This document shows, piece by piece, positions 57,551 to 64,000 of a DNA stretch of 64,000 nucleotides. Position 1 is the first letter of the stretch; each line of letters starts with the position of its first letter. The notes under the pieces are model-generated. The model ran no database searches. It had not been told where the DNA came from and was given only the letters and a program-made list of their open reading frames with translations. The position numbers and the translations under genes were made by a program. The stretch comes from an uncultured Gammaproteobacteria bacterium (GTDB lineage Bacteria > Pseudomonadota > Gammaproteobacteria > JACCXJ01), in contig CAVXTM010000010.1 of the NCBI GenBank assembly GCA_963764725.1, positions 1-64,000 on the forward strand, read 5' to 3'.

Positions 57551-58709
57551 TCAAGCCCCGAGGCAATACTCGGCGATCAACGCTTCGAGAATCGACTGCA
57601 TCGGAGCCAAGCGCGCGCCGTCCACATACTCGTCGGGCTGATGAGCCTGCGCGATGTCCGCCGGCCCGCAGACGACGGTCTCGATGCCGAGCGCGTTCAG
57701 GAACGGCCCCTCGGTCGCGAAGCTGACCGTACCCGCGGGGAGGCCGGTGAGCCGTTCGAGCGATTGCACGATCGCCGAGTCGCGATCGGTCTTCATGGCG
57801 CCGATGCCCGCCACCAACGGCCGTACCTCGAAGGCGAGACCGCTCCCCTCGACGGCCCGCTCGACGCGCTTGGCGAGCGCTTGGTGTAGCGTATCCAACG
57901 GCATGCCCGGCAAAGTGCGGATATCGATCTGGATCTCGCATTCGGCGCAGATCCGGTTAGGGCTGTCGCCGCCGTGGATATTACCGAGATTAAGCGTCGG
58001 CTCCGGGACCTCGAAATCATGATCCGCATACTCCGCCTGCAGCTCGCCTCGCCATTCCATCAGGGCGCCCAGGACCCGGTACATACCGTCGATCGCATTC
58101 TTCCCGAGCTTCGGGTTGCTCGCATGCCCGGAACGCCCGCGGAGCCGAATGGATTCCAGCGTTACGCCTTTGTGCATATAGACAGGCTTAAGGGCCGTGG
58201 GCTCGCCGATGAGCGCGTAGCGCCCAAGCTTCTCGCCTGCGGCTGCGAGGGCGCGCATCCCGGCCATCGAGCACTCCTCGTCGGCGGTCGCGAGGACGAC
58301 GAGCGGACGCGTCAACGCCCGGAGATCCATAGTGCCAGCCGCGGCGAGGATCAAGGGGAAAAAATTCTTCATGTCGGCCGCACCGAGACCATAGAGCCTC
58401 CCGTCCCGCTCGGTGAGCGTGAAGGGATCAGTCGAACCAGTTGCCCTCGTCATAGGGCACGGTATCGGTGTGCCCGGAAAGGACCAAGCCCCCTTCTCCC
58501 GGACCGCTACGGGCGATCAGATTGAGCTTATCGGGATGATGCCGAAGCGGCATCAGCTCGGTTTGAAACCCCAGGTTCTCGCACCAATCCGCCAGGCATT
58601 CGACCACGGCGCGGTTGCCGTGGTCGTAGCGCGGATCGACGCTGCTCATCGAGGGGATCGCGATGAGCTGCGATAGCATTTGCACTAACGTAGGCAGTTG
58701 CGCCGCCAT
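57551..58709 (-). CDS. argE: Acetylornithine deacetylase, one frameshift near 58435
   Basis: LSGHTDTVP in the 58428-58763 ORF continues as GLGAADMK, ADEE, IGEPT, AHQPDE in 57551-58453. One extra T in TGG T TCG. Confidence 0.88.
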
Positions 58710-58784
58710 GTAAGGCCGCTCAAAGTCATGGAAAGCGGGATTGTACACGGGCCATGCGCTCAAGGCATCGGACCGTTGTGATGA
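58707..58784 (-). repeat. argE leader/promoter region, copy 1 of a direct repeat (continues at 61227-61244)
   Basis: 69/78 identical to 62775-62852; contains TACAAT and the argE ATG. Confidence 0.9.
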
Positions 58785-58878
58785 GGTAGTGTTTCAGTTT
58801 AAGTTTCGGCTTCCGACCCTTACGCGACGTTGCGGATCGAGTCGCGGCTGTCATACGGTCCTTGTTGCACCGGAGACG

Positions 58879-60990
58879 CTACTGGGCCAGGCAGCATTTT
58901 TTGTATTTCTTCCCACTTCCGCAGGGACAGGGATCATTACGGCCGACCTTTCTGTTTTTCGCGGCGGCCGCAACAATCTTTGCTGGTCTCTCGCCGACCC
59001 GAAGATGCTTGGTGAGTTCGTCCATCCTCCCGCTGCGCTCCCATTTGTAGTCCAAGCAAAGCCCGAATCTCAACGATGCTTCCTCGGGAAGGACGCATAC
59101 GCCAAACCAAGTCCTCGCCTTTTCAGTGTACTTTCGCATCTCGCAGTGCCCCTGCAACCTGGGACCCGAAATGTCGATCGGATCACTGTTGCAATGGATT
59201 GTGAGGCCCGTGCCCGCTGCTGTTATTCCTACCGTCAAATCGTGATGCTTGCGGTCCATTCGCGCCTGTTTTGCAATGTGGTCTATTCCGTTACTCACAT
59301 CGTTGACGGTGTCTTCGCTCAGAGTCAGCAGCAGAAACCCGAGGTCGATAGTCCCAGGGTCTGGCCTTGCCTCTATCTCGCGAACGATTTTTCCGATAGA
59401 AGTCGCCGCAGAACGGGTCAATATGCCGTCCGGAGTTGGCTTGCCAGGAATTCCGTCTCGGCGCACAGCCATGGCAACGTCTAAGTCCGATGAAATATCA
59501 TCAGACAACATCACCATGTCGTGCTCGTCGTCGAACCACAGGTTGTTCTTGAGATGATACGAAAGGATCGTCAACTCGTGCGACGCAAGTAGCCGATCCG
59601 AATAGTTCGTACGGCGATTCGTATAGCTTAGGAAATGCAACGGCGACTGAAGCATCTCAGTCATTGCATCCAGCAGAAAGACGTCCATGACGAAAGGAGG
59701 CTGAATCGTTTCTGTCTGCTCGAATCGGAGGAATTGGCGTGCCTGAAACGCAAGTGCCGGATAATGATCAGCTACCACGCAGAAGATGTATATCTCTTTG
59801 AGGGGGACCGGTATCTGAACTTCTCTGGAGTCAGCGGTCACCAGCTTGTAGATGGAGTCAGACAGGAGCTTTGCGCATTTGTATCCTTGGTCGTGCGAGT
59901 CTTGAATGCTCTTCTTAAAGTCGTCCTTGATGCGGCCGTCGTGTCCCTTGCGTGCTTCCAGAGTCAACCGCTTGGACTTCGCCTGAAGGACGATAGCTCT
60001 ATTTGCAAAGACGACCAGAACGTCGATCTCACCGGCTTTCCTCCCTTTGGCCCCAACGATGTAGACGTTGGAATAGACCTTGTCCTGCCCGAACACGAGT
60101 TCGAGTCGCTTGCGTGAAAATTCCTCAGTAAAGCGTCCCCTGTGACGCACGGCGTCGTTCACATAAGTCTTGTCGGCGCCCATCCAGTAGAAGGGCACTT
60201 CGTACAACGCCTCTACGAGGTTGTACGTCTGAAACAGTATGAATTCATCGCTGTTAAGACGAAGCAACGGTGAAGCGTTTGTAGCGTTGAAATCGTTGAT
60301 CGCCCGAAATCCACTATTGTTCTCACTTGGCGGCAACGAGAACGCGAGGAGCACTCTTTCGACATCGGCGATATCACAACCCGATTGGTCGGCCACCTCT
60401 AGCGCAGAAAATGTAAACCCAGGAAGCATTGTCCACTGCTCCGGCGGAGCCTTCTTGAGTGCCTTCAGTGTCGAGGCTGTTTTTCTGTTCTGAATCTCGC
60501 TCACTGCACGAACGACATTGCTTGCCTGCTGGATTGAGAAACCCTTATTGGTGATCAGCCAGGCGTCATCGTTCGCGTATTTTTTGATGGCTAGATCCCG
60601 GTATTGAAAGGTGTAGGCAGATTCGCCTCCATAGAAAATCGGCTCCCTCAATGCTGCTCCACTTGTTAATGGGTTCTCAGCTAGCTTTGCAGACATGGAG
60701 TTGTGCATTTCCTGGAGCAACGCTTCGGTTTTCTCCAAATAGTTTTGCATCACTACTGGCGTTGGCAGCGAGTAATTGATTTTTCCCTTGATAAGTAACC
60801 CGATCAGAGTGGAGATCTCAGTGCGTACCAATCTGTCCATTGAAAATAGATGCGGCATGTCTTCGGCCGTCATTTCTCCTTCGTAGCCGACCATGTTGTC
60901 TCGGAAGCACAGGTACGCTATTGCGTGCGCATACCCCGGCGAAGCACATATCTTCGCGAGGTCATCAAAGATTTCTTGCTCTTCGCGCAT
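58879..60990 (-). CDS. NERD/PD-(D/E)xK-like nuclease domain protein with C-terminal SEC-C motif
   Basis: FTE..SRKRL...GEIDVLVV...IVLQAKSK and KVGRNDPCPCGSGKKYKKCC; lower GC than the host genes. Confidence 0.8.
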   Translation of the reverse strand: MREEQEIFDDLAKICASPGYAHAIAYLCFRDNMVGYEGEMTAEDMPHLFSMDRLVRTEISTLIGLLIKGKINYSLPTPVVMQNYLEKTEALLQEMHNSMSAKLAENPLTSGAALREPIFYGGESAYTFQYRDLAIKKYANDDAWLITNKGFSIQQASNVVRAVSEIQNRKTASTLKALKKAPPEQWTMLPGFTFSALEVADQSGCDIADVERVLLAFSLPPSENNSGFRAINDFNATNASPLLRLNSDEFILFQTYNLVEALYEVPFYWMGADKTYVNDAVRHRGRFTEEFSRKRLELVFGQDKVYSNVYIVGAKGRKAGEIDVLVVFANRAIVLQAKSKRLTLEARKGHDGRIKDDFKKSIQDSHDQGYKCAKLLSDSIYKLVTADSREVQIPVPLKEIYIFCVVADHYPALAFQARQFLRFEQTETIQPPFVMDVFLLDAMTEMLQSPLHFLSYTNRRTNYSDRLLASHELTILSYHLKNNLWFDDEHDMVMLSDDISSDLDVAMAVRRDGIPGKPTPDGILTRSAATSIGKIVREIEARPDPGTIDLGFLLLTLSEDTVNDVSNGIDHIAKQARMDRKHHDLTVGITAAGTGLTIHCNSDPIDISGPRLQGHCEMRKYTEKARTWFGVCVLPEEASLRFGLCLDYKWERSGRMDELTKHLRVGERPAKIVAAAAKNRKVGRNDPCPCGSGKKYKKCCLAQ

Positions 60991-61160
60991 TTCTTACGTA
61001 ACTTGAAGTGTTCGCTGACACGTTGATCGCGCCCAGCTTCGGCACTTCTGCGTGTCCAGTGCGACTGTAGATCCTGCCGCATTACTAGAGAGCCGTCGTG
61101 CTCTCCGCGCGCCACCGCTCAGTGACCGCTACAGGAACAGGCTCATCAACGTCCGGAACT

Positions 61161-61198
61161 GGCCGAGGCTGTGTGGGTTTTTACACAACCTCGGCCGA
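61161..61198. mobile_element. Collapsed IS1182-like ends inserted in a palindromic site
   Basis: GGCCGA GGCTGTGT..TTTTACACAACC TC GGCCGA: a palindrome with duplicated GGCCGA. Confidence 0.5.
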
Positions 61199-61293
61199 TA
61201 GCCGAAATTCAATCTGAGACACTACCTGTGATAACGGCGGCGCCAATATCCCATTAGCCAACGTAGCGTGCGCCGTGCGCACGAACTACGATT

Positions 61294-61482
61294 TTATGAT
61301 AACGGCTCTCCGCCGCGAGCATTGGCCTCGAAGAGCGCCTCCTGGAAGTCCAGCGCAGCGCCTTGGAGGCGTTGTGTGATGACGAAGCGCTGTGCCTTCG
61401 GGAAGCGATCGCACTGCGGGAGCAGCCAGGTTAGCAAGTCGTAGGTCTGGGTTAGAATTACCAGCTCTTTGGCATCCGACAT
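61294..61482 (-). pseudogene. avd: Truncated DGR accessory protein Avd (four-helix bundle)
   Basis: ELVILTQTYDLLTWLLPQCDRFPKAQRFVITQRLQGAALDFQEAL is the N-terminal half of Avd; the C-terminal helices are missing. Confidence 0.75.
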
Positions 61483-61536
61483 GACGAGGAGGATCTGCTA
61501 AATAGTCTCTCGTAATTTCTTGAGCTCGCCCTATTC

Positions 61537-61674
61537 AATGTAGGGTGGGTGAGCCGCGGCGGCGTTACCCACCAACCGTCGGCCGCAGGCCGACACCTTG
61601 AGGTAAGGAGGCCCGCTACGCGGGCCGAGTCGGTGGGTTGCGGCATAAACAGCATGCCGAACCCACCCTACATT
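61537..61674. repeat. Inverted REP doublet (REPIN-like)
   Basis: AATGTAGGGTGGGT...ACCCACCCTACATT perfect 14-bp terminal IR; each unit is GTAG plus a hairpin. Another small GTAG hairpin lies at 61263-61283. Confidence 0.8.
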
Positions 61675-61796
61675 TCCGGAGTCTACAATTTCAAACATCT
61701 TCGGGCTACGTTTCAACGCAATAACGGCGTGGGATAACCTGTGGCTGGAGCACCTGGTTCAAGGCGATATCCGCTTCCTGCTCGCCGGGTTCAATA

Positions 61797-62756
61797 CTAT
61801 CGAGATGGGCCGGACCACTGCCCTTCGAGCTGCGCTGCTCCCGCAGGCGGAGCGCCGGTCGTGTTGTTGCCCCTGGAGACCGCCTCGATCTCGGCCTTGA
61901 GTTCCTCGACTTGCTGTACCGCTGCAGCTTGCTTGTCTGTTGGCGCCTGTTGCGCGACAACGGCCAGCAGGGACGCGAACAGTGGTTCCAAGTCCTTTGG
62001 CGAAATGCCCTGGGTAATCCTGTCGCGCCCGACGAAGTCACGGCCCGCGTGCGCGTCGCCGCCGACGTAGGCGCCACCGCCGGTATCGGTGTTCGTCTGC
62101 GTGCCGGTGTTGACGTTCCCGGTGTTTTTGCCGCCGACATGGACGCCACGGGCGCCGACCGCGGTCGCGCCCGGTCCTTGCGCGATCGCACCACTGCCGG
62201 CGAGGGTCGCCTGGTAGGTGTTGCCGTGAGGCGCGGCGGCGTCACCCTTGTCCGGCTTGAATTCCATGAAGCCGCCTGCAGCAAGCTTGTCCAGTTGCTG
62301 AGTGAAATGGAGTAACAGGCCCTCGGTGTTCTTGTAGCGAGTGTAGAAATGTCCTAGGGCGTCCAGCTTCTCCTGGAACGCAAACAGGCTCATCAAGTCC
62401 TTCTTGTTGGCACTGCTGAGGCTGACTTCGGCCTCCTTGAAGTAAGTGAAGATGAATGGCTTGTGGGTGGATTTGAATTGTTTGAAGGCGTGCTCGAACT
62501 CTTCCTCTGTGTACTTGCCGACCTTGGTCCAGAACAGCATCACGAAAATGTCGCACTCCCGGATGGCTTTGTTGTATTCGTCCTGTAGCCGGCTCTGCGA
62601 CATGGCGTCGAGGAAATCCTCCCACATGACGAGTTCAAGGTAGACGCCTTGATCTACCCAATGCTTGTTCTTGCGATTGATGAAGATCTCGAACTCTTTC
62701 CGGTCCTCCTTCAATTCAGCGGAGGAGGCGAGAAATATTTTCTTCGTTTGCGTCAT
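61797..62756 (-). CDS. TIR-like/DUF4062-like domain protein with Gly/Asn/Thr-rich amyloid-like motif
   Basis: KIFLASSAELKEDR...IRECDIFVMLFWTKVGKYTEEEF, followed by GSGAIAQG...VGGKNTGNVNTG...GGAYVGGDAHAGRDFVGRD. Confidence 0.75.
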   Translation of the reverse strand: MTQTKKIFLASSAELKEDRKEFEIFINRKNKHWVDQGVYLELVMWEDFLDAMSQSRLQDEYNKAIRECDIFVMLFWTKVGKYTEEEFEHAFKQFKSTHKPFIFTYFKEAEVSLSSANKKDLMSLFAFQEKLDALGHFYTRYKNTEGLLLHFTQQLDKLAAGGFMEFKPDKGDAAAPHGNTYQATLAGSGAIAQGPGATAVGARGVHVGGKNTGNVNTGTQTNTDTGGGAYVGGDAHAGRDFVGRDRITQGISPKDLEPLFASLLAVVAQQAPTDKQAAAVQQVEELKAEIEAVSRGNNTTGAPPAGAAQLEGQWSGPSR

Positions 62757-62774
62757 GGTGTTTCCTTGTACCGG

Positions 62775-62862
62775 CATGTAATGCCGCTCAAAGTCATGAA
62801 AAGCAAGATTGTACATGGGCCATGCGCGCAAGGCATCGCGTCGTTGTGATGACGGCGGCGCC
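62775..62862 (-). repeat. argE leader region, copy 2 (uninterrupted)
   Basis: Aligns to 58707-58784 plus 61235-61244. Confidence 0.9.
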
Positions 62863-62931: not shown

Positions 62932-63357
62932 TCAGCCCATCCGCGACCCAGAGCCTTCCAGTTCTATTAGAAACGCCGCCACCGTAAGGATAGCGATACC
63001 TCGAAATGGATGCTGCATCAGCAGATCCTTGTCGCCGGTCAGAATGCGATCCGCGTCACCGCAGACCGCCAGTTCGAGGAACTTGTTATCTCTTCGATCA
63101 CGGCAGGCGGTGATTTCCTGGTCAATCTTGACCTCCTCACCCGTGGCGATGAACTCGGCGATAAAGGCGCGGGCGGTTTCCGCTTCAATATACCGGGCAA
63201 ACTTCGGTCGAGTGAGCACCTCAGCCAACTCGGCCAAGGTGGCGGAAGAATACAGCAGCGTGTGTTTAGCCGTAACATGATCCAGGACTGGAATGAGCGG
63301 CGAATTTGGATGGATGAGGTAACTGACCCACAGGTTGGTGTCTACCACCACCCTCAT
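62932..63357 (-). CDS. PIN-domain toxin (VapC-like)
   Basis: MRVVVDTN, ELAEVL, CRDRRDNKFLELA, ILTGDKDLL. Confidence 0.92.
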   Translation of the reverse strand: MRVVVDTNLWVSYLIHPNSPLIPVLDHVTAKHTLLYSSATLAELAEVLTRPKFARYIEAETARAFIAEFIATGEEVKIDQEITACRDRRDNKFLELAVCGDADRILTGDKDLLMQHPFRGIAILTVAAFLIELEGSGSRMG

Positions 63358-63551
63358 GCGTCAGACTGCACCAGTTCCTTGAAAATATCATCAGTCATGC
63401 CCCGGCGCTTAGCCTCTTCACGGGCGCGCCGGGCAATGTCGGCTAGGCTCTCATCGACCAGAACGGTCACGGGCTTGTCGGGCGCGATGCCCAGTTGTGC
63501 CAGGATCTTACTGGCGTCGCCCGCAGCGATGTTTTCGATGGCTCGCGTCAT
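63354..63551 (-). CDS. Putative antitoxin of the PIN toxin
   Basis: 65-aa ORF with a 4-bp overlap upstream of PIN; EAKRRGMTDDIFKEL. Confidence 0.75.
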   Translation of the reverse strand: MTRAIENIAAGDASKILAQLGIAPDKPVTVLVDESLADIARRAREEAKRRGMTDDIFKELVQSDA

Positions 63552-63751
63552 ACGCTATCCCCGGTCAGAGCCGGAAGTTTAGGATAGCACCTTAGCACAC
63601 GTCGGATCCTTTTAAAATGGCGTAGTCGGCGTAGCACGGAATAGGTTACGTCGTACGGCGCGCTGAGCGCAGACTATGCTCGCTGTGTCGCGGCTCGCCT
63701 CCCCTACGGTGGAACCGAGTGCCATACGGACGACTCAGTATGGACGCCGCG

Positions 63752-64000
63752 TTTCTCGCCAGCTGGCGCCGTACGGAACTGGTTGCCAGCGGGGTAGGGT
63801 TGTCGCGGCCGTGCAACGGTTCCTCCGCTTTCCGATGAGCGCGCCGGTCACATGGCGATCAGACCTTCCAAGATCCGTGCCCATCTTGCTGTCGTCGGCG
63901 CTGCCGGTTGGCATGAACGGCAGCCCGCGACTTTCTCGCGAGGCTGCGCGCCGTACGGAACTGGTTGCTACGGGCTAGGGTACTCGGCGCCGTGCAACGG
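63752..64000 (+). repeat. About 70-bp direct repeat with 180-bp period, running off the window end
   Basis: TTTCTCGC..GCGCCGTACGGAACTGGTTGC..CGGG.TAGGGT..GCCGTGCAACGG at 63752-63819 and 63932-64000. Confidence 0.85.

Follow-up and report, generated by a model that had tools for sequence, protein, structure and literature searches.

A probable IS1-family mobile insertion cassette carrying a single passenger gene ahead of an argE-like gene

Architecture of the locus

In the window, by which we mean the whole 64,000-nucleotide stretch of DNA that was analysed, copies of one repeat lie upstream of an argE-like gene (peptidase M20; Peptidase_M20 and M20_dimer on 57551-58453) and upstream of a TIR/DUF4062-like gene. 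It is in the spacer ahead of the first of these, an arginine-biosynthesis gene, that a cassette of 2442 bp sits (Table 1). The argE-like gene has a possible frameshift at position 58435. The cassette is bounded by inverted arms of 35 nt each (58784-58818 and 61193-61227, 80% complementary), whose 26-nt cores match at 22/26 positions on direct reading, as the first-pass annotation of this DNA had stated; with as many as three mismatches allowed, the window has a single occurrence of the left 26-mer, and 100 shuffles gave no match. The same annotation placed the element at 58777-61234, a span that does contain it but takes in both copies of the target duplication, the proper limits being 58785-61226. 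The 8-bp duplication is present as described, with TGTGATGA on the left and TGTGATAA on the right agreeing at 7/8 positions. Because the duplication is imperfect and the left end departs from the family consensus, this copy may be old and may no longer be mobilisable.

The motif TTCCGACCC just inside the left end is common to many ends of the same type, and the right side holds one AGCGGTCA-type subterminal motif together with a perfect 14-bp hairpin at 61161-61196 (fold, z = -3.75). One metagenome contig lacks positions 61161-61192. A metagenome joint between 58818 and 61198 was discounted, its two sides being only 28-29 nt long and lying inside the inverted repeats.

Table 1. Features of the cassette and of its insertion site (window positions).
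Feature	Position	Strand	Remark
Left flank, 87-nt repeat copy	58698-58784		Last 8 nt are the left duplication copy; 86% identical to 62766-62852
Left target duplication copy, TGTGATGA	58777-58784		Present as a single copy in the empty paralogue and orthologues
Terminal inverted repeat, end A	58785-58810	+	3 mismatches to family consensus; complementarity with the other arm reaches 58818
Non-coding subterminal stretch, A end to cargo stop codon	58811-58878		Starts with TTCCGACCC motif
Passenger gene, 703 aa	58879-60990	-	Intact, full length relative to homologues
Non-coding 5' leader and subterminal stretch, B side	60991-61200	-	One AGCGGTCA-type motif
Terminal inverted repeat, end B	61201-61226	-	1 mismatch to family consensus
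Right target duplication copy, TGTGATAA	61227-61234		7/8
Right flank	61227-61314		With 34 nt of the B end, paralogous to contig positions 75061-75181, outside the window
Uninterrupted paralogous target	62766-62862		Repeat, a single TGTGATGA, then CGGCGGCGCC

The insertion site

The pre-insertion site was said to survive as a nearby paralogue with both junctions exact, and this is what we find at 62766-62862: the paralogue matches the left flank over 87 nt and the right flank at 17/18 positions (62845-62862 against 61227-61244), so that the uninterrupted copy spans both junctions exactly. The orthologous site is empty in three of the six genus genomes compared at the junction (G003 and G006, published; G005, unpublished). 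Set against these sites, 58785-61226 proves to be a discrete insertion, flanked by an 8-bp duplication, in a spacer left uninterrupted in the paralogue and in these orthologues.

The 2442-bp unit need not have been the original mover. The partner of the A end at 58785 could have been the B end at 75095 on the contig, the two making a compound of about 16.3 kb; alternatively, the two ends seen here could stem from separate events or from a rearrangement between cassettes. The right junction is indeed present twice, and its paralogue (83.7% identity over 123 nt) meets a B end of the family at the identical nucleotide. The outer pair of ends is flanked on either side by a perfect TGTGATGA, against 7/8 for the inner pair. 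The inner right flank, however, carries the repeat onward just as happens at the empty paralogous and orthologous sites (TGTGAT[G/A]A, then CGGCGGCGCC), one A end and one B end surround one gene as in the 1506-bp sibling on contig 1, and a metagenome contig of 2550 bp holds the whole 2442-bp unit with both junctions. The stretch from argE to the gene that here lies beyond 75171 is variable across the genus, and in two relatives, G008 and G005 (unpublished), an A end at this kind of site is followed by that gene 1.6-2.4 kb on; no B end was found in G008, and 13 kb searched with as many as eight errors allowed yielded no left-end partner for the solo B end at 75095. Weighing these observations together, we consider a mover other than the 2442-bp unit unlikely.

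The passenger gene

The discrete 2442-bp insertion has an interior that bears out the earlier description of 2.44 kb with one cargo ORF and no transposase: genome-wide six-frame searches placed no IS1 or IS256 transposase inside 58785-61226, and Pfam assigned a family to none of the four other ORFs tested within the element. In the 703-aa protein, residues 285-385 form a NERD (PD-(D/E)xK-like nuclease) domain and residues 684-701 a SEC-C metal-binding motif; D323 and Q336-x-K338 are invariant in 27 homologues. Its family is large and uncharacterised, and the protein is predicted to be a nuclease, possibly defence-related; its PADLOC matches cover residues 670-702 (the SEC-C motif) only and are uninformative on a defence role, and a literature search for the NERD domain together with SEC-C gave no match. 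Between 58600 and 61400 no sigma-70-like promoter site was found for the gene, against 1.9 expected. The low G+C content of the element (52.5%, against 59.4% for the genome) suggests that the cargo was acquired from elsewhere.

Since this protein is the sole gene of the unit and has a nuclease-like domain with invariant residues, it might be asked whether it is itself a nuclease-based transposase that moves the unit, and not cargo. Among 80 loci retained in a search for its homologues three are full length, the rest being dominated by the SEC-C motif pattern, and around these three, all in reference genomes, there are neither family ends (at up to eight mismatches) nor any 11-mer inverted repeat. 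Moreover, sibling cassettes with the same ends hold unrelated genes, and a dedicated IS1-type transposase goes with the same ends elsewhere. The 703-aa protein is thus almost certainly not the mover, and we treat it below as the passenger.

Elements with the same ends

The first-pass annotation stated that its reading would fall if the ends occurred nowhere else in the genome and had no kinship with an IS; they are in fact repeated and IS-related. This genome has 12 family ends at up to six substitutions, and the paired elements among them measure 1506 bp (8/8 duplication), 5363 bp (8/8), 2442 bp (7/8) and 5538 bp (6/8); the cargo of these paired elements is unrelated, with no protein in common. 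A hidden transposase shared by the ORFs of about 390 aa in three of the siblings was considered and rejected, as these show 20-25% identity, no conserved blocks and no Pfam family.

In other genomes, an exact 22-mer of the end recurs in 72 stretches, among which there are 26 convergent pairs with a duplication of 8/8 in 13 and of 7/8 in three; of these 16, five contain a transposase and 11 do not. The IS1-type transposase, held by seven of the 72 foreign loci, is the sole protein cluster that recurs inside paired elements, while the foreign cargo includes a P450-like protein, a methyltransferase, an epoxide hydrolase, a PIN protein and AAA ATPases. There are also short siblings of 583-830 bp. 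Each of the seven transposase-bearing siblings looked at (L034, L053, L075, L084, L097, L098 and that of G003) has at least one further ORF. A conserved small gene was looked for at the non-transposase end of the autonomous siblings: all nine elements examined have small ORFs, with no mutual similarity by eye.

An internal site at which the vehicle captures genes, as had been proposed, is not borne out by these elements: over 98 ends, conservation falls to near zero past about 35 nt from the tip, so that no fixed internal capture site is visible, and the distance from tip to cargo gene varies from element to element.

Family assignment

The elements that share these ends encode a transposase of about 300 aa, a single ORF with an N-terminal helix-turn-helix of the HTH_38 type followed by an IS1-type DDE domain. 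The Pfam model DDE_Tnp_IS1 (PF03400) scored above its cut-off in all four of the transposases tested from such elements; the best NCBIfam model, transpos_IS1, reached 69 bits, under its cut-off of 100. Among 15 homologues listed, the plasmid records H1, H2 and H4 give theirs as "IS1 family transposase"; H2 and H4, the two inspected, have the gene inside duplication-bounded elements. A profile of the transposase aligned to E. coli InsB (hhalign 88.6%, E = 2.6e-6) with the D, D and E blocks in register. The tips tell a similar story: they read GGTAGTG, in agreement with the IS1-type terminal consensus of ISfinder, GGnnnTG, and they are identical to the end of E. coli IS1A (NC_000913.3) at 13/26 positions, GGTAnTGnCTC included. 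The duplication too has the 8-9 bp length of IS1, at 7/8 here and 8/8 in two of the siblings in this genome. A search on ISMhu11 gave no match.

The element had been called IS256-type, a non-autonomous vehicle that would be mobilised by resident IS256 transposases. The genome is certainly rich in such genes, with 24 PF00872 matches of which at least nine are full length, and IS256 likewise gives duplications of 8-9 bp, as seen on the resident copies, and has inverted ends of like length. In both resident IS256 groups, however, the ends start with GAG and have no similarity to those of the cassette. None of the IS256 copies has a cassette end in its vicinity, the elements with cassette ends were never seen to contain a PF00872 gene, and every transposase found within same-ended elements is of the IS1 type, whereas that of IS256 belongs to another fold family (Transposase_mut). 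The search for an autonomous partner that the first-pass annotation called for has led to elements with an IS1-type transposase in other genomes and not to an IS256 partner, and we regard an IS256 vehicle as scarcely credible. A GG start with an 8-bp duplication does not discriminate IS1 from IS256; the lesson for annotation is that such ends do not imply IS256.

Since the same ends bound elements with an IS1-type transposase elsewhere and the resident IS256 ends are unrelated, 58785-61226 is very probably a non-autonomous element of the IS1 family, more precisely a mobile insertion cassette (MIC) with one passenger gene. With 2442 bp and an intact 703-aa ORF it is not a MITE, which would be non-coding and no longer than a few hundred bp, and with only about 35 nt of each tip related to an IS it is not a composite transposon, which would be flanked by two complete IS copies; IS-derived inverted repeats around a passenger gene, with no transposase, are what define a MIC.

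Mobilisation

Judging by this structure, the cassette would have been inserted by an IS1-type transposase acting in trans, an enzyme that would bind the 26-bp tips and cut the target with a stagger of 8 bp; presumably it was the cognate transposase described above that moved it. A profile search of the assembly returned one fragment of 22.5 bits and PF03400 had no matches, which in an assembly that is 96.9% complete in 19 contigs is not proof of absence. As this assembly has no cognate transposase, we infer that in it the cassette is at present stranded. A member of the same genus, G003, has an intact transposase of 308 aa in a 2810-bp element with the same tips and an 8/8 duplication.

Relation to known systems

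In E. coli K-12, IS1A (NC_000913.3, 19796-20563) shares with the cassette the tip GGTAnTGnCTC, and its InsB DDE core aligns to the cognate transposase. IS1A is, however, passenger-free and autonomous at 768 bp, its insA and insB are joined by a frameshift whereas one ORF of about 300 aa encodes the cognate enzyme, and the similarity of the enzymes is low (33% over 119 columns). Another comparison is with the IS1-family "transporter IS", which carry passenger genes between the same ends and make the same 8-bp duplication, although the element in the window is devoid of any transposase.

PMC4337579, citing Chen et al. 1999, describes MICs as one or more passenger genes between IS-type inverted repeats without a transposase; its examples are MIC231 of Bacillus cereus, which has IS231 ends, and the Xanthomonas MICs derived from TnXax1. 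On that description they resemble the present family in having a target duplication of the length of the parent family and in comprising many cassettes that share their ends and differ in cargo; they differ in their parent, which is IS1 here (8-bp duplication) and IS4/IS231 or Tn3 (5 bp) there. Mobilisation in trans was shown for MIC231 according to the same source, whereas here it is presumed from the structure.

The cassette adds one more member to a kind of element already described. Its empty paralogous and orthologous sites make it a clean natural example of a single gene that appears to have been moved by an IS1-type transposase it does not encode, the gene in question being a candidate nuclease from a large uncharacterised family. 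The same 26-bp tips surround many single genes, unrelated to one another, in metagenome-assembled genomes whose labels span several phyla, and so transposase-less IS1 cassettes may be an under-catalogued route of gene traffic.

Repeated occupancy of one nucleotide

In two other genus genomes (both unpublished) the identical nucleotide is occupied by family ends with differing interiors. Taking these two genomes together with a duplicated copy in a third and the paralogous junction in the present genome, three different interiors are found at this nucleotide, and a tree of the flanking 2.56 kb requires at least two gains or losses to explain the pattern of occupancy. The target duplications of the family show no consensus elsewhere. 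One might speculate that the IS1-like family works as a transposon-borne gene-cassette system that reuses resident ends or target sites; on present evidence we think this rather unlikely. If it were so, the site would be a strong site-specific hotspot for the transposase despite the lack of a duplication consensus elsewhere, or else cargo would be swapped in place by way of the roughly 35 nt conserved at each tip, in a recombinational "cassette swap" akin to the cassette turnover of integrons.

Anatomy of the cassette and its siblings

The cassette on contig 10 is delimited by two 26-nt end cores that agree at 22 of 26 positions and sit within longer inverted arms; the octamers beside it are TGTGATGA and TGTGATAA, and a perfect 14-bp hairpin lies on its B side. 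At up to three mismatches the left core has no second occurrence in the window, and 100 shuffles gave no match. A single long ORF lies between the ends, and none of the four other ORFs inside the unit (0/4) has a Pfam family. The first-pass annotation had described the ends, the octamers and the single long ORF, all of which we confirm in the sequence; the uninterrupted paralogous target that it had proposed is also real, by two repeat matches (see table).

The ends recur in this genome as a repeat family: its assembly (4.21 Mb in 19 contigs, completeness 96.9%), searched with up to six substitutions allowed, contains 12 ends, which make up four convergent pairs and four solo ends. The sibling interiors are mutually unrelated and hold no transposase. 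One carries a 390-aa ORF without any family, another a PPIase-like protein, a DUF3604 protein and a 393-aa ORF, while the 919-aa ORF of the contig-18 sibling weakly matches STAND-type defence models (PADLOC PDC-M54A, Avs4). The sibling cassettes' three ~390-aa ORFs are not homologous to one another.

Coordinates of the cassette, its siblings and neighbouring features (contigs of the same assembly)
Feature	Contig	Position	Strand	Length	Remarks
Cassette in the window	10	58785-61226		2442 bp	duplication 7/8
Inverted arms	10	58784-58818 / 61193-61227		35 nt	80% complementary
Sole long ORF between the ends	10	58879-60990	minus	703 aa	
Sibling pair	1	94315-95820		1506 bp	duplication GATTTTTC, 8/8
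Sibling pair	7	67624-72986		5363 bp	duplication GAGACATC, 8/8
Sibling pair	18	333958-339495		5538 bp	duplication 6/8
Solo B end	10	75095			
Solo ends	2, 12, 15				
Empty paralogue of left flank	10	62766-62852			86% identical to 87 nt left of insertion
Empty paralogue of junction	10	62845-62862			17/18 identical to duplication + next 10 nt
argE-like peptidase M20 gene	10	57551..58453, 58428..58763	minus		two frames; overlap 58428-58453
bAvd-like fragment	10	61294-61482	minus	62 aa	
Short repeat	10	61524-61708			perfect 14-nt inverted repeat, 61537-61550 / 61661-61674
TIR_2/DUF4062-like protein	10	61797-62756	minus		N-terminus matches PADLOC PDC-S60
PIN_3 (VapC-like) gene	10	62932-63357	minus		
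Small ORF upstream of PIN_3	10	63354-63551	minus		
Two tandem units	10	63747-64000 (to ~64030)			~181 nt apart
Variable island	10	58785-75095			bounded by family A end + B end

The end family in other genomes

The end's exact 22-mer was found in 72 stretches of a species-representative genome collection, from metagenome-assembled genomes and isolates labelled Alpha-, Beta- and Gammaproteobacteria, Acidobacteriota, Planctomycetota and others. Counted within stretches of up to 8 kb per locus, these contain 26 convergent pairs, with an 8-base duplication that is perfect in 13 and 7/8 in three; no shared sequence was seen among the duplicated octamers. Of the 16 duplication-bounded elements, 11, with lengths of 583-1784 bp, lack a transposase. 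The cargo between paired ends, as catalogued here and in the own genome, consists of unrelated genes; abroad it includes a P450-like protein, a SAM methyltransferase, an epoxide hydrolase, a PIN protein and a hydrolase-cyclase fusion, in a list of paired elements with scanned ORFs of which some have a clean duplication and others none. One Acidiferrobacterales MAG contig (L027, 3188 bp) holds four family ends within 3 kb, two of them sharing a left flank, and the subterminal sequence of one is nearly identical to the B side of the window's unit; the arrangement suggests nested or tandem cassettes.

It had been proposed that an internal site of the element captures genes, a reading that the ends do not bear out. 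In an ungapped alignment of 98 ends, information content is high at positions 1-26 (positions 5-26 being fixed by the search pattern in 72 of the ends and free in the partner ends and those of the own genome) and about zero beyond ~35 nt from the tip, and no internal capture site is visible. The spacing between tip and cargo gene varies as well: the window's unit has 94 and 236 nt, its sibling on contig 1 has 179 and 154 nt. Seventeen of the 98 ends contain AGCGG(A/T)C(A/G), a motif of loose placement with clusters around +38 and from +72 to +84, against a mean of 0.7 and a maximum of 5 in shuffled sequences; it may be a subterminal binding site.

Cognate transposase and family assignment

Clustering the ORFs of the 72 loci yielded one recurrent protein inside the elements, adjoining one tip: a transposase of about 300 aa, 59-71% identical among four copies, all four of which score above the Pfam cut-off for DDE_Tnp_IS1. 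An N-terminal helix-turn-helix is present in three of the four, always below the Pfam cut-off (HTH_38 twice, HTH_23 once), and the top NCBIfam model is transpos_IS1, at 69 bits against a model cut-off of 100. A profile built from this protein matches seven of the 72 foreign loci. Plasmid homologues occur in 28 records; among the 15 listed, those on three plasmids (H1, H2 and H4) are annotated as IS1 family transposase, and in the two plasmid records examined the gene shares its element, which has the same tips and is bounded by a duplication, with extra genes. Against E. coli InsB the profile aligns at three catalytic blocks (hhalign 88.6%, E = 2.6e-6; 33% identity over 119 columns), and the K-12 IS1A end shares 13 of 26 positions with the cassette tips, including GGTAnTGnCTC.

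The first-pass annotation had called the vehicle IS256-type. IS256 is well represented in the own genome, with 24 PF00872 matches, but as parent family it is rejected: the resident IS256 ends begin GAG and are unrelated to the cassette ends, no IS256 transposase gene lies beside a cassette end in this genome, and where elements with cassette ends encode a transposase, it is the DDE_Tnp_IS1 enzyme. Judged from sequence, the cognate enzyme is of IS1 type. The resident IS256 elements include two active-looking groups of ~1.38 kb, on contigs 5, 9, 10, 11, 12, 15 and 18, with copies 99.8-100% identical and duplications of 8-9 bp; some copies on contig 9 are nested in one another.

A putative autonomous partner of the sort anticipated earlier, though an IS1-type and not an IS256 element, is intact in a published genome of the same genus (G003), while none was found in the own draft assembly. 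The G003 element (2810 bp) encodes an intact 308-aa transposase and one passenger ORF, has a perfect duplication, CCGGCCCG, and the first 19 nt of both its tips are the same. In the own draft the transposase profile found only a 22.5-bit fragment (contig 16), PF03400 had no match, and no cassette end lies at a contig terminus. Across 31 genomes (the own and 30 relatives), eight, all of the same taxonomic family, have a match at E <= 1e-10; within the genus it is three of eight, the own genome counted as negative. Further intact copies occur in G013 (published) and G010 (unpublished), the other matches being fragments. Six autonomous siblings (L075, L053, L029, L025, L044, L084) have an inward-facing promoter-like sequence just inside the non-transposase tip (TTGAC, spacer, TATATG or TATGCT), and beyond it a small ORF that varies from element to element.

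Mobile insertion cassettes (MICs) are described in PMC4337579 as passenger genes within IS-related inverted repeats, without a transposase and activated by a cognate one. The window's unit fits this definition, its activation by the cognate transposase being putative. PMC8496243 cites Siguier et al. 2009 for IS1 and IS1595 elements with passengers; a search confined to the open literature found no description of IS1-family MICs. The kind of element is already known and this example is new.

The passenger gene

A NERD domain (E = 9.9e-7) and, at the C-terminus, a SEC-C motif (E = 1.8e-10) are recognisable in the cargo protein. It belongs to a large family of ~715-aa proteins, with 3212 of 7998 scored candidates matching at E <= 0.001, whose only name is "SEC-C metal-binding domain-containing protein". 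Homologues are 59-70% identical, except for one 98% relative, and E321, D323 and Q336-A-K338 are invariant across 27 aligned members. An AlphaFold model of moderate quality (pLDDT 70.6, pTM 0.58) gave Foldseek matches that are weak yet all PD-(D/E)xK nucleases, namely Upx (E = 1.5e-4, TM 0.23), then FokI, N.BspD6I and Can2; accordingly, the cargo is classed here as a predicted nuclease. PMC13099982 presents Upx as a dual nuclease directed against phage; a defence role for the cargo is a guess. Cassette ends surround the full-length homologue in none of three reference genomes (0/3), and the gene is therefore ordinary cargo, outside the transposition machinery.

History of the insertion site and neighbouring DNA

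Copies of an 87-nt repeat precede both the argE-like gene, where the insertion lies 19 nt beyond the repeat, and a TIR/DUF4062-like gene at a distance of 4 kb. Nothing interrupts the argE-proximal copy, and TGTGATGA stands there only once, in the published G003 and G006 and the unpublished G005; the last of these has another copy of the repeat as well, which is occupied. Two further unpublished genomes, G001 and G008, carry a family A-type end at the identical nucleotide and differ beyond the tip from the window and from each other; all statements on G001, G005 and G008 rest on unpublished genomes. For the adjoining 2.56 kb, a maximum-likelihood tree (a single locus, six rows, no outgroup) has one supported split, {own, G003} versus {G001, G008, G005, G006} (97/98); this does not match the occupied genomes, and it therefore takes two or more gains or losses to account for them. 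Repeated occupation of one nucleotide may reflect a hotspot, or interiors exchanged between cassettes.

Beside the solo B end on contig 10 lie TGTGATGA and a paralogue, 88 nt long, of the right flank of the window's unit, the paralogy starting exactly 34 nt inside the end. From argE to the gene beyond 75.1 kb the distance is ~16 kb in the own genome against ~3.6 kb in G003, and since no genus genome compared has the same stretch there, it is a variable island, most of which lies outside the window.

Some sampled words of the stretch occur in 14 metagenomic runs from six studies, and half or more of them in three runs. Contigs were compared from four runs of three studies (sediment and cave) and show presence only. 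One, of 2550 bp, spans the whole unit and both junctions with ~20 differences and a 32-nt deletion within the hairpin, and agrees with the 98% protein relative, likewise on a 2550-bp contig. Others follow the left flank up to 58783 and continue into unrelated sequence, which is what relatives whose site is unoccupied should show. Contigs from four runs have one base fewer than the window at 58435, in the argE-like gene, and the window's copy thus carries a 1-nt frameshift or an assembly error.

The genes beside the cassette look like a small defence or toxin-antitoxin islet. The short repeat among them, probably a MITE, has copies on contigs 1, 2, 10 (83.6 kb), 11 and 18 and a very high summed contig depth in metagenomes. 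The tandem units at the end of the window share a perfect 21-mer and an 83% 30-mer.
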